Below are positions 19,052-30,029 of a DNA stretch of 64,000 bases, piece by piece. The notes under the pieces are model-generated. The model did no database searches. It was not told the origin of the DNA and saw only the letters and a program-made list of their open reading frames with translations. Position 1 is the stretch's first letter; each line of letters starts with the position of its first letter. The stretch is from Armatimonadota bacterium (GTDB lineage Bacteria; Armatimonadota; UBA5829), in contig JBDKUO010000067.1 in the NCBI GenBank assembly GCA_039679645.1, positions 28,208 to 92,207 of the forward strand, read 5' to 3'. The position numbers and the translations under genes were made by a program.

Positions 19052-19451
19052 TTGTCACCTCGTCTGTAGTCTTGAGACTGTGGCCAAGTGGGACGTCCTT
19101 TGGTAGCGGGAGCTTGCTGATGTAGCCCCGCTCCAAACACCAGGCAAGGAAAACTCGGAAGACGCGGATGGTCTTCTTGATCGTGATTTCCGAACGGTCT
19201 TTGTCGCCGTGCATTTTGAGAAGTATGTCCGACTTGAGAAAGCCGGAGACGTGGGGAATGAGGATCGAGCGGAGCTTCTTGTCAGGGCCGAAGTAAGCTT
19301 CAACCTGCTCGAAGTCCTTTCCATACGTGTAAAGGGTGCGCTCGCTCTTGCCTTGGCTCTTGAGGTATTCAACGTGTTCCTCAATGGCCTCGTGTAGTGT
19401 TTTCTGTTCCATTTCACTACCTCCAGTGGTTGTGTTGTTCACATGGATCAC
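19014..19451 (-). CDS. Integrase N-terminal (SAM-like core-binding) domain protein, separate ORF overlapping recombinase start
   Basis: 145 aa; TLYTYGKDFEQVEAYF...IRVFRVFLAWCLERGYI pattern of phage integrase N-terminal domain. Confidence 0.4.
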   Translation of the reverse strand: MIHVNNTTTGGSEMEQKTLHEAIEEHVEYLKSQGKSERTLYTYGKDFEQVEAYFGPDKKLRSILIPHVSGFLKSDILLKMHGDKDRSEITIKKTIRVFRVFLAWCLERGYISKLPLPKDVPLGHSLKTTDEVTNADEHIDPAAAA

Positions 19452-21043
19452 TCATATCGCGTTTGAAGTCAAGGGTTCTTGCCTCGAATGTGCGAGAAAA
19501 AGCGGAGGAAAAACAGTTGGTTGAGATAACGTCGGAAGAAGAAAGACTGGGAATGTCGCTGCGGGACCCGGTGCTCTGGGGTGAGAAGTACCTGCGCAAT
19601 CGGGACGGTTCCGCGCGCAGTTATTGGCCACACCAGATCGACGACCTCAAGTGCGAGGATCGGAACATCATCCACCTCGACGGCCGTGATTGCGGAAAGT
19701 CGATATCGCTTACGACTGATGCTCTGCACTTCGCCTTTACCAAACGCGGCGGCCAGGGGCTCATCGCTGCTCCCCACCAGGGACACCTCGATACGCTCAT
19801 TGAGGAGATTGAGTTTCAACTCGATTCCAACTCCGAGCTTATGAGAAGCATTGCCCTCACCAAATACGGTAAGCCGAAGATCACACGCAAGCCGTACTTC
19901 AGACTGGAGTTCACCAACGGCGCGGTCCTCTATTTCCGACCTGCCGGGGCCTACGGCGACGCCTTCAGATCATTGCACGTCGAGCGTGTCTGGGTAGACG
20001 AAGGCGCATGGCTCACCGAAAAGGCATGGAAGGCTCTCCGGCAGTGCCTCAAGGCCGGAGGACGACTGCGTATATACTCGACTCCGAACGGCCTGCGGAA
20101 CACCACCTACTACCGGCTCACGACGTCGCCGCAGTTTGAGGTATTCAGGTGGCCGTCGTGGATAAACCCGGACTGGAGTGAGGAGCGCGAACGCGAACTC
20201 CTTGAGTTCTACGGTGGACGCGACACTGCGGGCTGGCAGCACGAGGTCGCCGGTGAACACGGCAAGCCGTCCTACGGTGCGTTCAACGTCGAGCACTTGA
20301 ACCTCTGCCGACAGGAAATGCCGGAGTATTTGAAGGTCGTGATAACTGGCGAGGGCATGCGCGACTGCGTAACTGAAGAAGAATCATACGACCGCCTGGA
20401 GATGCTCCTGAACCTGATGCCGCAGACCGGCGTCTTCTGGATAGGCGGCGACCTGGGTTACACCAATGACCCGACAGAGATCGTCGTCTTTCAGGAGATA
20501 GAGGTCGGGGACCGCTCGGTCGTGAAACTCGCGCTGCGAATCCACATGGAGCACGTTTCATACCCGCACATTGCTCAGACGATCAGCCTGCTTGAGCGAT
20601 ATTTCACTCCGGTCGGGATCGGTGTGGACAATGGCGGCAACGGTCTGGCGGTCGTGCAGGAACTACTCACACTCGACAAATATAAACCTCTCCAGCTTGA
20701 AGGTCGACTGCGCGGTTACGACTTCGGCGGTATGACAACACTTGCCGTGCGCGAAGGCCAGGAGGTGAAGAAGCGTACCAAGGAGCTTATGACCAGTCTT
20801 ATTAACGGCGTGCTCCAGCGCAGGCAGCTAGTCCTGCCTGCCGACGATCTTGAGATAGAGGACCAGTTCACCACTCACACATATACTCTCTCGAACGGCA
20901 ATGTCATCTACTCCAAAGGCAACGACCACATAATCGACGCCGTGCGCTGCGCGATGCTGGTGCGGGAACAGAGAAGCCTGGACCATGTAACCGAGGAGAC
21001 GGTCTGTGTCATGCCGGTGCTTACCGACCCGATATTTTTCTGA
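19397..21043 (+). CDS. Terminase large subunit (real start probably near 19553)
   Basis: ATPase Walker A-like HLDGRDCGKS, Walker B-like VWVDEGAW; C-terminal nuclease-like acidic motifs (GIGVDNGGNG, NDHIIDAV). Confidence 0.8.
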   Translation: MFSVPFHYLQWLCCSHGSLISRLKSRVLASNVREKAEEKQLVEITSEEERLGMSLRDPVLWGEKYLRNRDGSARSYWPHQIDDLKCEDRNIIHLDGRDCGKSISLTTDALHFAFTKRGGQGLIAAPHQGHLDTLIEEIEFQLDSNSELMRSIALTKYGKPKITRKPYFRLEFTNGAVLYFRPAGAYGDAFRSLHVERVWVDEGAWLTEKAWKALRQCLKAGGRLRIYSTPNGLRNTTYYRLTTSPQFEVFRWPSWINPDWSEERERELLEFYGGRDTAGWQHEVAGEHGKPSYGAFNVEHLNLCRQEMPEYLKVVITGEGMRDCVTEEESYDRLEMLLNLMPQTGVFWIGGDLGYTNDPTEIVVFQEIEVGDRSVVKLALRIHMEHVSYPHIAQTISLLERYFTPVGIGVDNGGNGLAVVQELLTLDKYKPLQLEGRLRGYDFGGMTTLAVREGQEVKKRTKELMTSLINGVLQRRQLVLPADDLEIEDQFTTHTYTLSNGNVIYSKGNDHIIDAVRCAMLVREQRSLDHVTEETVCVMPVLTDPIFF

Positions 21044-21413
21044 GGCAGTCTATGTTTCCGGCAGCGCCGATTCCACAAGTGCAAGAAGTGTCGCAAGTGG
21101 AATACGCAGCGCCCATGCTATGACGATTATCTCGGAAAGCTCCGGGTCGTGCTTGCCATTCGAGGCACTCAAGGACAACCCTTGACACCAAAGCGCTCGC
21201 TGCATAGATCAATTGTGTTTTGATGTGTTTTATACTTATCACCTCTGCGCTTTAGTCAGGGGATTTTGTCGCTTCATTTCCCTGCAATGGTGCTCATGCC
21301 TCTTGTTGTGCTACTTATATGATTCGACAAACACCAGTATTTACGATGGGTTTGCAAGCTCGTTGCCACCCGTGCGGAAACCAGGGGTATCGTCAGGCCG
21401 TTTGCGGATTACT

Positions 21414-21454
21414 CCGACACTTCCCGGTTTTGGCGAGTACATATCAAGTAGAGG
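21414..21454 (+). promoter_or_regulatory. Conserved phage promoter-like motif, copy 3
   Basis: ccgacacttcccggttttggcgagtacatatcaagtagagg, 47 nt upstream of portal ATG 21501. Confidence 0.6.
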
Positions 21455-21500
21455 CACTCTTGTGTGCCATTACCGACTTCAAGACAGCGAGTATCCTATA

Positions 21501-23012
21501 ATGAAAAACTCCAGACGACGATCAGGGCCACGAAAAGCTGTGTCCGACCAGCCGGGCATGCGGACCGACGGTATTGTCGTTGCGCCGCTTGCGTCAGCGG
21601 CGGCACTAGACTCCTCCACGTTTGCCGGTGTGAATGCAATTGATGTCATCCCAAAGACCTGGGAAGAGCGCGCTAAGAAAGCCTGGGATTACTACGTCGA
21701 GGAGCCGCTTGTCAAAAACTGCATCAACTCCTGGCGGACGTTTGCCGTTGGAGACGAGATACGGATATCCAGCAACGACGACACCGTCAAGACCGAGGCA
21801 AACGATCTTGCCGACAAGCTCGGCATCTCTGAGTTCGTAAAAGACATGGTCCTCCAACTTCTCGTTAAAGGCGACGCAGTAGGCTTCAAGCATTACGCAA
21901 AAGATGGCAGAGACATCGAAGAGCTGACGTGCGTGAACCCGATCTCGATTAAGGTCAAATACGCTCAGTGCCAGCTAATCGAAATTCAGCAGTTTCCCGG
22001 TGATGGTCTGGCTGTAGGCGACGGCCTGAAGCTGCCCATTGAGCAGACCCTGCACCTTAAGTGGGACGCGCCGTCGTTTTCCCCTCGCGGCAACTCACTC
22101 GTGCTTCCGGCCTTCCAGTCCATCGAGTTGCTGCGTGACTACCGAAGGGCTGAACAGGCCATAGCTAAGCGCTGGGCGACACCGTTTCGCCTGCTCAAAG
22201 TCGGCGGTGCATTCGGTCAGAAGATGATAATGCCCGACCAGAAGATGCTCGAACAGACACGCGACATGGTCAACAGAATGGATATGAAAAGCGGCCTGGT
22301 CGTGCCGTTCTACATCACCGTCGAGACCCACGGTACTGAAGGCCAGGTTCTCAATGTCGAGGACAAAGTCAAGGATGTCAAGGAAGACATCGTCGTCGCT
22401 CTCGGCCTGTCGCGTTCTCTTGTGGCTGGCGACGGCCCCAACTTTGCCACGGCATCAGTCTCTATGCAGAAGATGCTCATCATGATCCGCGAGATTAAGC
22501 ATGCGGCGAAAACCATACTCGACTGGGTGTTCGACGACTGGCTGGAGATCGCGGGGCATCAGGGCAAAAGCGTCCAGTTCGTCTTCAACGACCTCGATCC
22601 GACCGATGCGGTAGACTTCAAGAAGCTCCTTATCGAGCTATACGACCGGAAACTCATAAGCCGATCAAGTCTGCAATTGAAGATGGACCTTGACCCGGAT
22701 ACCGAGACGGCAAATCGGCAGCACGAGGGTCAGTCGGTCGACTTGCTCGATGAGAAGCAGGTCAAGCCAATCGTGGACATGGTCGTGGCCGGGATAATGA
22801 GTATAGAGACCGCGCAGCAGATGCTCGGCCTCGATCCGGCGAAGAACCGACCGGATGGCCAGACAGCCGCGTCCCTCTATTCCAGCGTGGGTGTCGGCGA
22901 GATGTGCGACTCCTGTGCCTACTTTGGCGAGGATCACAACTGCTGCGGAGTCACGCAAGCCGAGACAACTTTCGATTCCCCGGCATGCCGCTTCTTCGTG
23001 CGACAAAGATGA
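21501..23012 (+). CDS. Portal protein (ORF open from 21213; start chosen at ATG 21501 after promoter motif)
   Basis: ~500 aa between TerL and MuF-like gene; C-terminal Cys cluster CDSCAYFGEDHNCCG...ACRFF. Confidence 0.65.
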   Translation: MKNSRRRSGPRKAVSDQPGMRTDGIVVAPLASAAALDSSTFAGVNAIDVIPKTWEERAKKAWDYYVEEPLVKNCINSWRTFAVGDEIRISSNDDTVKTEANDLADKLGISEFVKDMVLQLLVKGDAVGFKHYAKDGRDIEELTCVNPISIKVKYAQCQLIEIQQFPGDGLAVGDGLKLPIEQTLHLKWDAPSFSPRGNSLVLPAFQSIELLRDYRRAEQAIAKRWATPFRLLKVGGAFGQKMIMPDQKMLEQTRDMVNRMDMKSGLVVPFYITVETHGTEGQVLNVEDKVKDVKEDIVVALGLSRSLVAGDGPNFATASVSMQKMLIMIREIKHAAKTILDWVFDDWLEIAGHQGKSVQFVFNDLDPTDAVDFKKLLIELYDRKLISRSSLQLKMDLDPDTETANRQHEGQSVDLLDEKQVKPIVDMVVAGIMSIETAQQMLGLDPAKNRPDGQTAASLYSSVGVGEMCDSCAYFGEDHNCCGVTQAETTFDSPACRFFVRQR

Positions 23013-24574
23013 TCTGCACTATTGCATCGGATTTAACTCCGCAGGCTCAGGCGATCCGCGAAGCCACGCTCAAGAGTCTACATGCCCGTGACCTATACTC
23101 CGAGCAGATCGCGCACGAACTGACACAGTCCTTAAAGACCGCGCAGGAACAGGTACGCAAAGTGCTCCTCAACTATAAGAGCCTGGGGTCACTGCCCGAC
23201 AACAAACTCGCCGCCTTGAAAGGTCTTGAGAAGCTGGACGCGGAGATAGGCGACCTGATGAAGACGCTCAAGAAAGAGCAGACTCTGGTGTTCCGCAAGG
23301 CTTCCCGCGCGTCGTTCAGGTCTGGCATATATCACGGCATCGGGGAATTCGTCGCGGCGCAGTTGCCTTTCTACCGTGATCTTGCACCAGACGGGATAGA
23401 CAAGCTCACCACGTCTATGTTTACCCTTATCGACACCGACGCGCTCGATTTTATTGTCAACTACAACCTCGTGCTTGCAGCCGATGTGCATCGGGAGCTT
23501 TCAGACGGCATCAAGCGCACGATCCTCTCCGGGATTGCCACAGGCAAAGGGGTAGACGACATCGTCCGCGACCTGGGCAGGGTCATCGAGAACAAGGAAT
23601 CATTCCGCAACGCGGGAAGCAAGGTGTTCAGCCGGGCGCAGTATCGCATGGAGATGATTGCCCGCACCGAAGTCCTGCGCGCTCACAACCAGGGTCGCAT
23701 CAAGTTTTACCAGCAGGTCGGCGTTCAGAAGCTCGAATGGATGGCTGTGGAAGACGAGCGGATGTGCCCTGTCTGCGGCGGTCTCGACGGCCAAGTATTC
23801 GACATTGACAAATTCCCCAACATCCCGGCACATCCTCTATGCCGCTGCCAGTCTCTGCCAGCATGGCCGCTGGTTGTAAGCGGCGGCGAACTCGGCGCTG
23901 CGGCTACCAAGGATAAGCCCGCCTGCATTCTATCTCCGCAGGCGATCCAGGAGCAGGCAAGACGGAAGATAGAGGAAGAGAAGATGCTCAAGGGCGCATT
24001 CGAGTCAGGCCAGATCGCGGATTTGAGCGCCCTTACGGTAAAACAGCTACAGACGCTGGCAAAACAAAACGGCATATCAATCGCGCGCACCAAGTCCGAC
24101 TTCATCAAGCTGCTTGATCTGGTGGAGCCGGGGGTTCACCACAGTGATCTATCGGGAGCGGTGCTGCAGGCGAAGATAGGGCAGTACAACATCGCGGCGT
24201 TACGGGGTAAAGACGAACTCGTGAAGCTGTTGGCCGAAAAGCAGGCTGCAATCAGGAAGGCGAAGGCTCTTGAGGAAGCCGCGAAGAACGCGATCTCTCA
24301 GGAAGGTCTTGCCGCTCTCAGCGTGGCCAAACTCAGGGAGATGGCCAAAGATCAAGGTATTCCTCTGAGCCTTACGAAGAGCGAGGTTATTGAAATGCTG
24401 GATACGCTCGAACCCGGAGTGGATCACTCAGGTCTTGCCGGAAAAGCGCTCGCTGCTGCGAAAGCCAGGCATAACATCGGGTCCATCAAGAATAAGGATC
24501 AGCTCATAAATGCTTTGGAGAAGGTCGCCGGTCAAAAGATGGCGCTTCGTGTTCTCCGAGATAAGCAGCCCTGA
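23009..24574 (+). CDS. Head morphogenesis protein, MuF/SPP1 gp7 family, with duplicated C-terminal SAP/Rho-N-like domain
   Basis: MCPVCGGLDGQVF...AHPLCRCQ motif; ATGA overlap with portal stop; two ~70-aa repeats LTVKQLQTLAKQNGISIARTKSDFIKLLDLVEPGV / LSVAKLREMAKDQGIPLSLTKSEVIEMLDTLEPGV. Confidence 0.8.
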   Translation: MICTIASDLTPQAQAIREATLKSLHARDLYSEQIAHELTQSLKTAQEQVRKVLLNYKSLGSLPDNKLAALKGLEKLDAEIGDLMKTLKKEQTLVFRKASRASFRSGIYHGIGEFVAAQLPFYRDLAPDGIDKLTTSMFTLIDTDALDFIVNYNLVLAADVHRELSDGIKRTILSGIATGKGVDDIVRDLGRVIENKESFRNAGSKVFSRAQYRMEMIARTEVLRAHNQGRIKFYQQVGVQKLEWMAVEDERMCPVCGGLDGQVFDIDKFPNIPAHPLCRCQSLPAWPLVVSGGELGAAATKDKPACILSPQAIQEQARRKIEEEKMLKGAFESGQIADLSALTVKQLQTLAKQNGISIARTKSDFIKLLDLVEPGVHHSDLSGAVLQAKIGQYNIAALRGKDELVKLLAEKQAAIRKAKALEEAAKNAISQEGLAALSVAKLREMAKDQGIPLSLTKSEVIEMLDTLEPGVDHSGLAGKALAAAKARHNIGSIKNKDQLINALEKVAGQKMALRVLRDKQP

Positions 24575-24859: not shown

Positions 24860-24900
24860 TCGACACTTTCTGGATTTCAGAAGTACATATCAAATAGAGG
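24860..24900 (+). promoter_or_regulatory. Conserved phage promoter-like motif, copy 4
   Basis: tcgacactttctggatttcagaagtacatatcaaatagagg, 39 nt upstream of ATG 24939. Confidence 0.6.
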
Positions 24901-24938: not shown

Positions 24939-27900
24939 ATGCAGCTTTTCGCCACAGACCTGGATCGGCTGGCATTTCTTCTTGAGACGGATGCTTCGCG
25001 CCACCTTGAGCTTCTTCTCGCACAGGCGGCCGAGCTTATTACCGAGGAACTGCCGGAAGATAAGCGGCCAAAATACATAACAAACTACATCGGCTCGAAA
25101 CAGAAACTCGTCGATTGGATCTGGAAGAACACGCCGGAAGATGTCGGCTCCGTTCTTGATGCGTTCTGCGGCTCGGCTGTTGTGGCGTATATGTATAAGA
25201 CCAAGGGTCTGTGCGTTCTGGCTAACGACCGGCTCCACTACTCATATCATGCCGCGCGTGCAATCATCGAAAATGACAGTGTACGCATAAGCCAGGATGA
25301 ACTGGACGGGCTTCTGGCAGACAATCCGAAAGCTGGAACCTTCGTCCGCGACAACTTCAAGGGACTCTTCTTCGCCAGCGGCGTCCACGCAATTATCGAT
25401 ACCATCCGAGCCAACATCAACAAACTCGATGGCTTCAAAAAAGACATCGCGCTGTTTGCTCTGGGTAAGACCTGCCTCTCGGGTAAGGGCGGGTTCGGGC
25501 ACTTCTCTTCGTCTACGAATTATGGCAAGTTCCAGGACTCGCCGGAGGAGTTCCGCAATCGATTCGCGGACAACATCGCCCGCATAAACGCCCTCATATT
25601 CAACAACGGCAAAGAGTGCAAGGCGTATCGGAAAGATATCAATGACGTGCTTTCCGATGCAAGGGTCGAACTGGCCTACTTCGATCCTCCTTACGCGACA
25701 GAGTTCTCGACAACCAACTACGAGAAAAGCTATCACTTCATCGAAGGCCTGATGACTTACTGGGATGGCCTTGAGATCAATACAGACTCGAAAACCCGTC
25801 ATTACGAGACCGACCACAAGTCGGTCACGAAGGCAAATGCCAACGAGTTCTTCGGTACGTTTCTGGCCAACGCTAGGCACATTCCGAACTGGCTCATTTC
25901 ATATCGTGACCATGCCTATCCCAACGAGAGCGAGATGAAAGGGATCATCTCGGTAAACGGCATGTCCAGCCGGATGCAGTCTCAGAAGCATCGTTACAGC
26001 ATTTCATCGAAATATTCTGAGAACTCAGATGCGGTGGAGCGGTTGTTTATCTGTAGCCGCGCGAAAGAGATGAAACAGGCAGCGTCTGTACGTCCGGCAT
26101 GCTCACAAATGCAGACACAGGCAGAATGGGATGAGACTGCAAACGAGATTCGCTATCGCGTGCGCGATCCCGAGCAGTTCCAGCCGGATAGTATTAGACG
26201 AAAAGCCCTCGAAGGCGTTGATGGCATCTCCATCATTACCGGCAGGCTTAAGGAAGAATTCGTTCCTGATGGCCACGACCCAAAATCCATGGTCCTTCAG
26301 TCTTACAGGTTCGCAAAGAAAACGGATGATAACGCCTATGGCTGGACGATGGAGAAGGCAAAGCAGTGGATTACCGAACACGAACTGGAAGCATCAAAGG
26401 CCGAGGTCCGCATCGAGGACAATATGCAGGCTCTGGCGGATGCGCCGTTTGCCGAAAGCCTTGATCTGCTTTCCTGCCAGGCAGGAACCGATGACCCCGT
26501 CAAAGTCACAGGCTTCATGGGAAACAAATACGTAATGCTCGGCTGGATTGAACGACAGGTTCCCAAGGATGCAAAGACCGTGCTTGATGCCTTCTCCGGT
26601 GGAGCCAATGTTGCATATCATTTGAAGCGCAGGGGCATGAAGGTCATCGCCAATGACCTGCTGCTCTATCCGTACCATATTGCGCGCGCCGTAGTGGAGA
26701 ACTCTCACGAGACTCTTTCGAATGAGGATATCGAACGCATCCTTGCACCAAATTCCAATGCAGGCACGTTCATAGTCGACAATTTCCACGGCTACTACTA
26801 CACCAAGAAAGTCCTGGCGTGGCTGGATCAGGTATGGTCGAACATCCAGAAGCTCTCCGGTTACAAGAAAGATTTGGCTCTTGCCGCACTCGGCAACACG
26901 GTGAAGGCGAAATCCATGTTCGGGCAGTTCCACCGCTCGAAGATCAACCTCAAAGCAGATATGGATGCTGACGCAGGTATCAAGGAAAACCAACTCGTAA
27001 GCATTCCAGTAACGCATATGGTCGAGAGCTTCAGGCGCTACGCCAGCCAGCTCAACAAGCTCGTTTTCGATAACGGTCAGGAATGCAAGGCATTCTGCGG
27101 GGATGCAGTGGAGGCAGTGCGCAAGTACGGTGCCGATGTGCTGTACCTCGACCCGCCTTACATCACGGAGTTTTCTAACAACGATTACGAATTTTCGCTG
27201 CACTTTGTCGAGGGTCTCATGAACCGCTGGGCGGATAAGGAACTCCTGAACGACAACCGCCGCAGCTACAAATCGCGCACGCATTACGACCGTGACAGTA
27301 TCCGCTCCCTCATAGACAACCTTGCTTCCGAAGCGCGCGGCAAGTATGAGACCGTGATTATGTCCTACCGGGACCGCGCATTTCCCACAGAGAAAGAAAT
27401 CAAGGACATGTTCGCCCAGCGATTTGGGCATGTCCGGGTCAGAGGAATGGACGTCGAATATGGCATTGTTCTGGGAAAAGGCAGCGAGGGAAAGACTGCC
27501 CGTGAACTGCTCTTCGTGGCGTCGAACAGTGGCCGTGTTCCGAAATCTACAGCAGCGTCGCTTGCAGCGAATTGTCACACATCCATTCCTGTGGAAGTGG
27601 CCATCTCCGGTGACAGTAGTCTTTCAGCGTCGGCCGTGGACATCAATCCCAACGCCGGTGATCCACAATTCGGCTTTATTATGTGCCGAGCGGGGACGAA
27701 CAAGAATGGCGATCACTTTACAGCAGATGAACTAGCGTCACGCTACACAACGGCCATCAACAAGAAAATTGATCTAAAACACTCTCAGGATTTGACGGAT
27801 ATTGTCGGCGGCATCATTGCTTCCGAGTTTGTGGAGGATGAGACCGGCGGTCGGGTCGAGTGTGCTGGGGAGTTATATGTGGCCGACTCTCCCACTGCCG

Positions 27901-28772
27901 CCCTCGCTTACAAACTCATGAAACGCGGGATCATCGCGCAGGTCTCTATGGAATGCGACTACGAATCGGGCGAGTGTTCCGTCTGTGGCAAGAAGGTGAC
28001 AAACAAAAGCGACTACTGCATCCATCTCCGAAAATCCAAGGGCGGCGAGTATCAGGGTAAGCCGGTCTTCGAGATTTTGCACGGTGTCACATTTACTGGC
28101 CTTGGACTTTTGGATCGTAAGGGTGCGGATGAGAACGCACGCATAACACAAGTTGCCTCGGACATGACGGGGCACACAACTTCAGGAGGCGACTCAGTGG
28201 ACGATGATAAGAAAGACCAGTTGACAGACGAGCAGCGCGAAGAGGCTGCCAAGAAGAAGGACTCCGGCGGCGGGGGTGCTTCGATGGATGACAAGGCTCG
28301 GATAAAAGAGCTTGAAGACGAAAACAAGCAGCTCAAGCAGCAGGTTTCAGACATGCAGAAGCAGATTGCTGAACTTGAAGCCGAAAGCAAGGCTGTCGCA
28401 AACAAGTCTCGCGCCGCGAAACTCATAGACAAGCTCGAAAAGTCAGGCATGAGCTTCGCCTCTGACGATGAGCGCGAGAAGGAGCTGGGTCGCCTTTCTG
28501 AACTTTCGGACGATGCATTCGCTGCAACCGAAGCTGCATATGATCGTGCTATCAGCACAAAACCGGCTGATTCAAAGTCGTCTGAGGCAGACGGCGCGGG
28601 CGACAAAGGCAAATCTGAATCCAAATCGGATCAGACTGACAAGCAGATGCGGACTGACGCAGGTGTGCGCCCTCTTGATGTGGACGACAAAAAGACCAGC
28701 CTTGAGGACAAGCTGCGCGACGGGTTCATGGTCGCATATCGAGATCGCGTAGGCGCGGGTCAGAGCAAATAA
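24939..28772 (+). CDS. 1277-aa protein: two tandem Dam-like (D12 class) N6-adenine DNA methyltransferase domains plus C-terminal Cys-cluster, coiled-coil and acidic tail (protease/scaffold-like) region
   Basis: Domain 1: YIGSKQKLVDWI, DAFCGSA (motif I), YFDPPYATEF (motif IV). Domain 2: FMGNKYVMLGWI, DAFSGGA, YLDPPYITEF. C-terminus: SMECDYESGECSVCGKKV, coiled coil KELEDENKQLKQQVSDMQKQIAELEAE, acidic/lysine-rich tail. Sits between MuF and capsid genes where scaffold/protease is expected. Confidence 0.7.
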   Translation: MQLFATDLDRLAFLLETDASRHLELLLAQAAELITEELPEDKRPKYITNYIGSKQKLVDWIWKNTPEDVGSVLDAFCGSAVVAYMYKTKGLCVLANDRLHYSYHAARAIIENDSVRISQDELDGLLADNPKAGTFVRDNFKGLFFASGVHAIIDTIRANINKLDGFKKDIALFALGKTCLSGKGGFGHFSSSTNYGKFQDSPEEFRNRFADNIARINALIFNNGKECKAYRKDINDVLSDARVELAYFDPPYATEFSTTNYEKSYHFIEGLMTYWDGLEINTDSKTRHYETDHKSVTKANANEFFGTFLANARHIPNWLISYRDHAYPNESEMKGIISVNGMSSRMQSQKHRYSISSKYSENSDAVERLFICSRAKEMKQAASVRPACSQMQTQAEWDETANEIRYRVRDPEQFQPDSIRRKALEGVDGISIITGRLKEEFVPDGHDPKSMVLQSYRFAKKTDDNAYGWTMEKAKQWITEHELEASKAEVRIEDNMQALADAPFAESLDLLSCQAGTDDPVKVTGFMGNKYVMLGWIERQVPKDAKTVLDAFSGGANVAYHLKRRGMKVIANDLLLYPYHIARAVVENSHETLSNEDIERILAPNSNAGTFIVDNFHGYYYTKKVLAWLDQVWSNIQKLSGYKKDLALAALGNTVKAKSMFGQFHRSKINLKADMDADAGIKENQLVSIPVTHMVESFRRYASQLNKLVFDNGQECKAFCGDAVEAVRKYGADVLYLDPPYITEFSNNDYEFSLHFVEGLMNRWADKELLNDNRRSYKSRTHYDRDSIRSLIDNLASEARGKYETVIMSYRDRAFPTEKEIKDMFAQRFGHVRVRGMDVEYGIVLGKGSEGKTARELLFVASNSGRVPKSTAASLAANCHTSIPVEVAISGDSSLSASAVDINPNAGDPQFGFIMCRAGTNKNGDHFTADELASRYTTAINKKIDLKHSQDLTDIVGGIIASEFVEDETGGRVECAGELYVADSPTAALAYKLMKRGIIAQVSMECDYESGECSVCGKKVTNKSDYCIHLRKSKGGEYQGKPVFEILHGVTFTGLGLLDRKGADENARITQVASDMTGHTTSGGDSVDDDKKDQLTDEQREEAAKKKDSGGGGASMDDKARIKELEDENKQLKQQVSDMQKQIAELEAESKAVANKSRAAKLIDKLEKSGMSFASDDEREKELGRLSELSDDAFAATEAAYDRAISTKPADSKSSEADGAGDKGKSESKSDQTDKQMRTDAGVRPLDVDDKKTSLEDKLRDGFMVAYRDRVGAGQSK

Positions 28773-28791: not shown

Positions 28792-29154
28792 GTGTCGTTT
28801 CTTAATCCAAATCATCGTGGTCTCGCGTATGGCGATGGCTATTTGCAGGGCGTGGGTTCGTGCGGCCAGTTCGTGAAACTGGTCGGGAACGACTTGTTCG
28901 CCGTCAATACAGACCCGCAGGCCAAAAGCTTTGGCACGCTGGCGAAGGATTATAAAGCGGGCGATATGCCCGGCATTTTCTGCATGGGTGGCGTGTACGA
29001 AACCGACGTCTACGAAGGCACCATCAATGCAAATGACGATCTTAAGGTTTCGGCGAACGGCAAGCTCACCTCGGGTGTCGCAGAGGGCGATGAGGTCGTG
29101 GCCAGGGCGATATCAATGTCGGCGGGGACACTGAAGTTCCGCCTGCTTATCTAG
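28792..29154 (+). CDS. Small capsid-associated protein (DUF2190-like, possible decoration/head fibre)
   Basis: 120 aa Gly-rich beta-type protein directly upstream of major capsid gene; family call from memory. Confidence 0.35.
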   Translation: MSFLNPNHRGLAYGDGYLQGVGSCGQFVKLVGNDLFAVNTDPQAKSFGTLAKDYKAGDMPGIFCMGGVYETDVYEGTINANDDLKVSANGKLTSGVAEGDEVVARAISMSAGTLKFRLLI

Positions 29155-29168
29155 GAAGAGGAGAAGAC

Positions 29169-30029
29169 GTGGAAACGAAAATAGATGTGCATAGCCAGCA
29201 ATATATGGAGGCCATGGCTCGCCTCATGAGCGAGGCATTGGAGTCTCCTGATGGGATGCGTGCTCTTGCAGCGGCAATTGCCGATCCAATCGAGCAGGAA
29301 ATAAAGCGTAAGGAGATTACGTCGCTCCTCCTCACTCAGCACACTTTGCCTAAGGGCGAACGGCCAATCTATCAGAAAAAGCCCAAGGTTAAGGCTTATT
29401 GGATAAGCACAGAAGGTGAGGCGCGAGAGCAGGAGCTTGGGCTTGAGGAAGTCGAGTTCCCTACAAATCGACTTCATTCTACGCCTATGGTTGACATTGG
29501 CGTGCTCAAGAATGGCAACATCGGCACGCTTATGGACATCCAGACATCTGCAGCCGACCAGATTCGAAAAGAGCTGGACAGGCGCACGCTCACCGTGCTT
29601 TCGGCTGCGGTTCCTGCCGCAAACACCATTGAGGTCACGGGCGGCAAGCTCACCGATGATGCCTTGAACGAAGCCATTTCGATAATCGAGGACCTTGAGC
29701 TCTCGGTTAAATACATCGTCATGCGAGGACGGCTGTTCAACGATATGCGCGACTGGGACCTCGACCCGGAGACCCGTGCAGAACTGCGGACCAAGGGTGT
29801 CATTAAGAACTACGGCACCGGTGGCATTATGCTTACCGCGTCGGCTGAGATGGACGAGATTCTGCTTGTGCCGGATGAGGAGATCGGAAAGATGCCTGTG
29901 CGTGAGTCACTTAAGACTGAGGCAATCGAGCAGAAGACGCGCTTTAAGACCGGGTGGCTCGTATGGTCTGAAATCGGTCAGGGAGTAACTCGGCCCGACA
30001 TTCTCGCCAAAATCAAGATTCTTGCGTAA
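29169..30029 (+). CDS. Major capsid protein (probable)
   Basis: 286-aa ORF after scaffold-position gene and decoration-like gene; no motif-level proof. Confidence 0.5.
   Translation: METKIDVHSQQYMEAMARLMSEALESPDGMRALAAAIADPIEQEIKRKEITSLLLTQHTLPKGERPIYQKKPKVKAYWISTEGEAREQELGLEEVEFPTNRLHSTPMVDIGVLKNGNIGTLMDIQTSAADQIRKELDRRTLTVLSAAVPAANTIEVTGGKLTDDALNEAISIIEDLELSVKYIVMRGRLFNDMRDWDLDPETRAELRTKGVIKNYGTGGIMLTASAEMDEILLVPDEEIGKMPVRESLKTEAIEQKTRFKTGWLVWSEIGQGVTRPDILAKIKILA

Follow-up and report, generated by a model that had tools for sequence, protein, structure and literature searches.

An Armatimonadota prophage gene predicted to encode a head-assembly polyprotein that joins two DNA adenine methyltransferases to a prohead protease and a nested scaffold

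The head genes of phage lambda are arranged in the order B-C/Nu3-D-E, that is, portal, protease/scaffold, decoration and capsid. In T4, the internal proteins and Alt are non-structural proteins that become part of the prohead core, are cut back by gp21 and are injected, and these separate proteins are targeted by a short N-terminal peptide (the capsid targeting sequence). Protease and scaffold share a reading frame and a C-terminus in lambda (gpC/gpNu3) and Mu (gpI/gpZ), with the scaffold arising from an internal in-frame start, and the interactions of lambda C, Nu3, B and E have been described (PMC3224144). The Dar proteins of P1 are head-internal and co-ejected, are cut by the prohead protease and are tied to head morphogenesis (PMC12810830), and the passages that treat DarB present it as a head-borne DNA adenine methyltransferase, acting in cis to protect the incoming DNA (PMC12810830; PMC5512222). 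Sections of the work on polyvalent proteins describe effectors fused to MuF or portal in multi-domain head-module proteins for which packaging and injection are predicted, with N6A methylase and ddrB-ParB as hub domains (Iyer, Burroughs, Anand, de Souza, Aravind 2017; PMC5512222); that text mentions the term 'prohead protease' once. Fusion to the P22 scaffold likewise leads to encapsidation of enzymes (PMC9962691).

The gene described here belongs to a prophage within an Armatimonadota genome and lies in a 64,000-nucleotide stretch of DNA (the window). Its coordinates had been predicted exactly: it runs from 24939 to 28772 on the plus strand, starts with an ATG preceded at 6 nt by a GGAG Shine-Dalgarno motif and, according to the ORF list and translation, encodes a 1277-aa product in a frame free of stops and frame changes. 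The exact protein, MEN6358265.1, comes from an Armatimonadota metagenome-assembled genome (MAG; 115.6-kb contig) and is publicly annotated only as "DNA adenine methylase". Sequence analysis and structure prediction show that the gene encodes a head-assembly polyprotein and contains a nested scaffold gene; in order from the N-terminus, the full-length product carries two distinct, motif-complete D12 methyltransferases (A and B) and a BRX-like domain (X), arranged A-X-B, followed by a prohead serine protease and an alpha-helical scaffold. A literature search found no description of such a methyltransferase-protease-scaffold fusion or of restriction evasion by that route. An artefact, in which misassembly or a frameshift would have joined separate methyltransferase and protease genes into one giant ORF, is hardly credible: the contig does come from a MAG, and in L015 two ORFs, of 570 aa and 698 aa, make up the equivalent region, but the architecture is uninterrupted at 80-84% identity in the independent assemblies L001 (80%, a MAG) and L002 and also in the representative P0097 (1280 aa), single-methyltransferase fusions are uninterrupted in the isolate genome L005 (Pontiellaceae B12219) and many metagenomes, and the frame itself is intact.

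The gene order is terminase (large subunit, 19397-21043), portal (21213-23012), MuF, polyprotein, 120-aa gene and HK97-fold capsid. Directly upstream of the polyprotein lies the MuF-like minor head protein (22904-24574, plus strand; PF04233, E 1.6e-15; phrog_6577, E 3.6e-110), and directly downstream the 120-aa protein (28792-29154, plus strand; assigned by synteny and a weak phrog_673 match), followed by the major capsid protein of 286 aa (29169-30029, plus strand; NF042927, E 4e-85; phrog_2522, E 2e-85). These profile matches bear out the slot between MuF-like and decoration/capsid genes in which the original prediction had placed the gene. By eye, the 120-aa sequence is Gly-rich and of a beta-rich-looking, not helical, composition; it is probably a head decoration protein, and a gene of 119-124 aa occupies the equivalent position in L003, L005, L006, L013, L014, L015 and L016. 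The slot between MuF and decoration-like plus capsid genes is conserved in L003, L005, L006, L013, L014 and L016, and in L006 it holds a methyltransferase-free X-protease-scaffold protein. The capsid protein is too short for a scaffolding delta domain of its own, and no separate scaffold gene was found. A 33-nt repeated motif (CGACACTTTCTGGATTTCAGAAGTACATATCAA; 24861-24893, plus strand), promoter-like or a regulator site, ends 46 nt before the ATG; its pattern, CGACAC-N15-AGTACATATCAA, has four exact copies in the window, all on the plus strand (0 expected, 100 shuffles). The "conserved promoter motif" announced earlier is thus real and its position and orientation would suit a promoter, but its identity as one found no backing in the sigma-70 consensus, which it does not match. 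Locus L001, although 80% identical, lacks the motif.

Domain A (aa 46-376; 25074-26066, plus strand) and domain B (aa 518-867; 26490-27539, plus strand) are assigned to the D12 class of N6-adenine DNA methyltransferases by Pfam MethyltransfD12 (PF02086), which matches in two stretches (E 8e-42, 144 bits against a cutoff of 22). Every motif quoted in the original prediction occurs in the protein, well above chance: YIGSKQKLVDWI (aa 50-61), DAFCGSA (74-80) and FDPPY (248-252, with DPPY at 249-252) in A, and FMGNKYVMLGWI (aa 526-537), DAFSGGA (550-556) and LDPPY (737-741, with DPPY at 738-741) in B. The domains had rightly been called complete, as each spans a PADLOC type II methyltransferase profile (A, MTase_II PDLC03261, 293 bits, whole profile covered; B, PDLC03385, 257 bits, positions 10-335 of 336). 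There are indeed two of them, but they are not directly tandem, being separated by about 140 aa that include the folded X domain of about 90 aa. They are only 36% identical to each other. Their best matches are to different type II profiles, which suggests two specificities. The methyltransferase folds might conceivably bind DNA as proteins inside the head or regulate assembly, catalysis being unimportant, a role with which two features would agree: motif I ends in Ala, not Gly, in both domains (FxGxA instead of FxGxG), and solved Dam-family structures resemble them only very remotely (E 0.085-0.9). We regard such a role as improbable, since DPPY is invariant in 14/14 homologous modules, YxGxK and F-x-G are likewise kept across these modules from divergent phages, and both domains match type II methyltransferase profiles strongly and at full length. 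The FxGxA motif was also counted against the explanation that we favour below.

The X domain (aa 393-480; 26115-26378, plus strand) is a BRX-like beta/alpha module and a recurrent companion of prohead proteases; neither this domain nor the nested scaffold gene had figured in the original prediction. At the cargo/protease boundary, the motif HTSIPVE (aa 880-886; 27576-27596, plus strand) is kept in L001, L003, L005 and P0069 while its flanks vary, and it is, speculatively, a candidate processing site; no cleavage sites were identified in the polyprotein. The adjoining prohead serine protease domain (aa 905-1075; 27651-28163, plus strand) has a predicted assemblin/T4 gp21 fold. This fold, together with a weak match of the scaffold to Phage_scaffold (PF06810), accords with the protease/scaffold-like C-terminus proposed earlier, but sequence-level matches to S78/HK97 fell below threshold, and hhalign comparisons with T4 gp21 and with HK97 gp4 were not significant. 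His948 and Ser1003, invariant and common to the capsid maturation proteases of cultured phages, are candidate catalytic residues, whereas H1048, a doubtful candidate for the third, is not conserved in distant relatives. The protease contains a Cys/His zinc-knuckle insert (C1006, C1013, C1016, C1027 and H1029; 27954-28025, plus strand), which weakly matches a C2H2-finger-like profile and in which C1013, C1016, C1027 and H1029 are invariant in close and distant homologues. The Cys cluster predicted earlier (GECSVCGKK, aa 1011-1019) is present, but as part of this insert inside the protease fold and not after the enzymatic part.

The putative nested start consists of an internal ribosome-binding site, AGGAGG (28184-28189), a 7-nt spacer and an in-frame GTG (28197-28199, codon 1087), together spanning 28184-28199 on the plus strand. 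Among the 1277 codons, this is the only in-frame start with a Shine-Dalgarno motif of at least 5 nt; a Shine-Dalgarno-like motif and a start are found at the equivalent position in 10/10 related loci at the DNA level, and eight of the nine strong Shine-Dalgarno plus start sites in 9 ORFs (7497 codons) are at the nested position. The column aligned to codon 1087 holds M, V or L in 68 of 75 homologues, within a linker that is otherwise unconserved and disordered. The nested start should yield a free scaffolding protein of 191 aa (28197-28772, plus strand; net charge -9) that has its C-terminus in common with the polyprotein. In the AF2 model its helices span aa 1117-1168, 1176-1187, 1191-1207 and 1255-1271; the linkers are disordered and acidic/Lys-rich. 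The first (28287-28442, plus strand; model residues 257-308, pLDDT ~90-96) also matches coiled-coil profiles and corresponds to the coiled coil recognised in the original prediction. The C-terminal helix, SLEDKLRDGFMVAYRDRVG (aa 1254-1272; 28698-28754, plus strand), is the best-conserved stretch of the scaffold region in the 75 homologues (consensus SLEDxLxxGFMAAYxxRVG) and may be a capsid-binding element.

Among relatives from MAGs, metagenomes and uncharacterised prophages, one protease-scaffold carries seven N-terminal architectures, including MT, X, X-X, MT-X, X-MT and MT-X-MT. One protein combines D12 methyltransferase matches and X with an unrelated XkdF-type protease, and another X-domain relative carries ddrB-ParB, a hub of polyvalent proteins in the sections cited above. 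PHROG 27806 "DNA methyltransferase" (798 positions) matches aa 520-1273 at 1285 bits, and thus a fusion of a single methyltransferase to protease and scaffold already exists as a phage protein family; it is annotated only as a methyltransferase, with protease, scaffold and nested start not recorded, and the window protein goes beyond it in having the X domain as well as another methyltransferase. The capsid-targeting reading of the original prediction gains support at the sequence level because the conserved nested start would give a free co-terminal scaffold and the N-terminal modules are exchanged while the protease-scaffold stays constant. The fusion probably loads the methyltransferases into the virus head.

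Many phages have orphan D12 methyltransferases that act before packaging, and the enzymes studied here might likewise modify replicated DNA in the producer cytoplasm, the fusion serving only late timing, stoichiometry or later disposal and the encapsidated enzyme being functionless. The full-length protein would be soluble and cytoplasmic until assembly, and the lack of strong avoidance of GATC (198 observed versus 272 expected) beside the strong avoidance of many 6-mers would fit genome-wide methylation in the producer. We nevertheless find this account doubtful. It leaves unexplained the repeated independent fusion of methyltransferases to prohead proteases (A-type, B-type, both, and another D12 family on the XkdF-type protease) and the presence of a methyltransferase-free X module in the same N-terminal place; a separate late gene would give equal timing, and a shared scaffold C-terminus with a nested start predicts rapid sequestration into procapsids. 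The strong avoidance of 6-bp palindromes in the phage, a sign of restriction pressure, was counted in favour of the explanation that follows.

On balance we favour a model in which the methyltransferases reach the procapsid via the shared scaffold end, are processed there and are then probably ejected with the DNA, which they would methylate. The free scaffold would drive procapsid assembly with the 286-aa capsid protein, and a minority of full-length molecules would co-assemble through the shared scaffold end, which would bring protease and methyltransferase cargo inside the shell, as for lambda C with Nu3. The protease would then cut the cargo free as the scaffold is degraded, and methyltransferase modules of ~38 kDa would stay trapped in the head. 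More speculatively, these would leave with the DNA at infection and, drawing on host SAM, would modify two different motifs of the incoming genome ahead of cutting by restriction enzymes. We infer presence in proheads and virions, release by cleavage, ejection, and methylation activity with its target motifs. A few dozen injected methyltransferase molecules may lag behind type II restriction. Activity within the producer cell, ahead of assembly, is also possible for these enzymes, and fusion alone is no proof of a delivery-dependent function. Methylation inside the head, by tethered enzymes acting on DNA as it threads into the capsid (as had also been proposed originally) or later, would have the enzyme adjoin every packaged genome; D12/Dam enzymes can, moreover, be processive. 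We give it a slim chance. Methylation during packaging is unlikely on kinetic and steric grounds, as motors moving at least hundreds of bp per second would far outpace Dam-type turnover, near-crystalline packaged DNA would disfavour base flipping, and the supply of SAM in a closed shell would be restricted to what is bound as cofactor or diffuses in through small pores. If delivery with the DNA is true, methyltransferases carried on a protease-scaffold would represent a route of restriction evasion.

The window gene order (portal, protease/scaffold, small decoration-like gene, capsid) is lambda-like, and the nested scaffold, here read at the sequence level, recalls both lambda and Mu. Lambda C is, however, of the ClpP/S49 type and Mu I of another family (PF10123), unlike the assemblin/T4 gp21 fold with zinc knuckle found here, and neither bears N-terminal enzyme cargo. 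Four capsid maturation proteases from cultured phages, Bacillus phage G gp19, Moorella phage MTATph1 CDS0006, Rhodococcus phage Finch gp17 and Gordonia phage Stormageddon gp13, are homologous in their core (27-33% identity), where the invariant His and Ser and the CxxC...CxH knuckle recur, and their genes lie between portal and capsid; they carry no methyltransferase, the protease being N-terminal with C-terminal extensions of up to ~1000 aa, and all belong to large phages (136-498 kb). The proposed methylation before restriction would resemble P1 DarB in function, but DarB, in the passages cited, combines an EcoKI/TaqI-like methyltransferase with an SF2 helicase and LPD36 in one fusion and is loaded via DarA/Hdf, whereas the window enzymes are of the D12 class, lack a helicase and are covalently joined to the protease-scaffold. 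In the polyvalent proteins as those sections present them, the carrier is MuF, portal or vRNAP and the methylase of the DarB type; here the carrier is the protease-scaffold, and MuF is a separate neighbouring gene. The protease that trims the T4 internal proteins and Alt, which also appear in parts of PMC5512222, has the fold predicted for the window protease, but targeting here would rely on a C-terminal scaffold domain in one polypeptide with the protease. In engineered P22 virus-like-particle nanoreactors, cargo-scaffold fusions co-assemble in the capsid; these are synthetic and lack a protease, their cargo stays tethered and DNA is not packaged, and the window gene looks like their natural counterpart.

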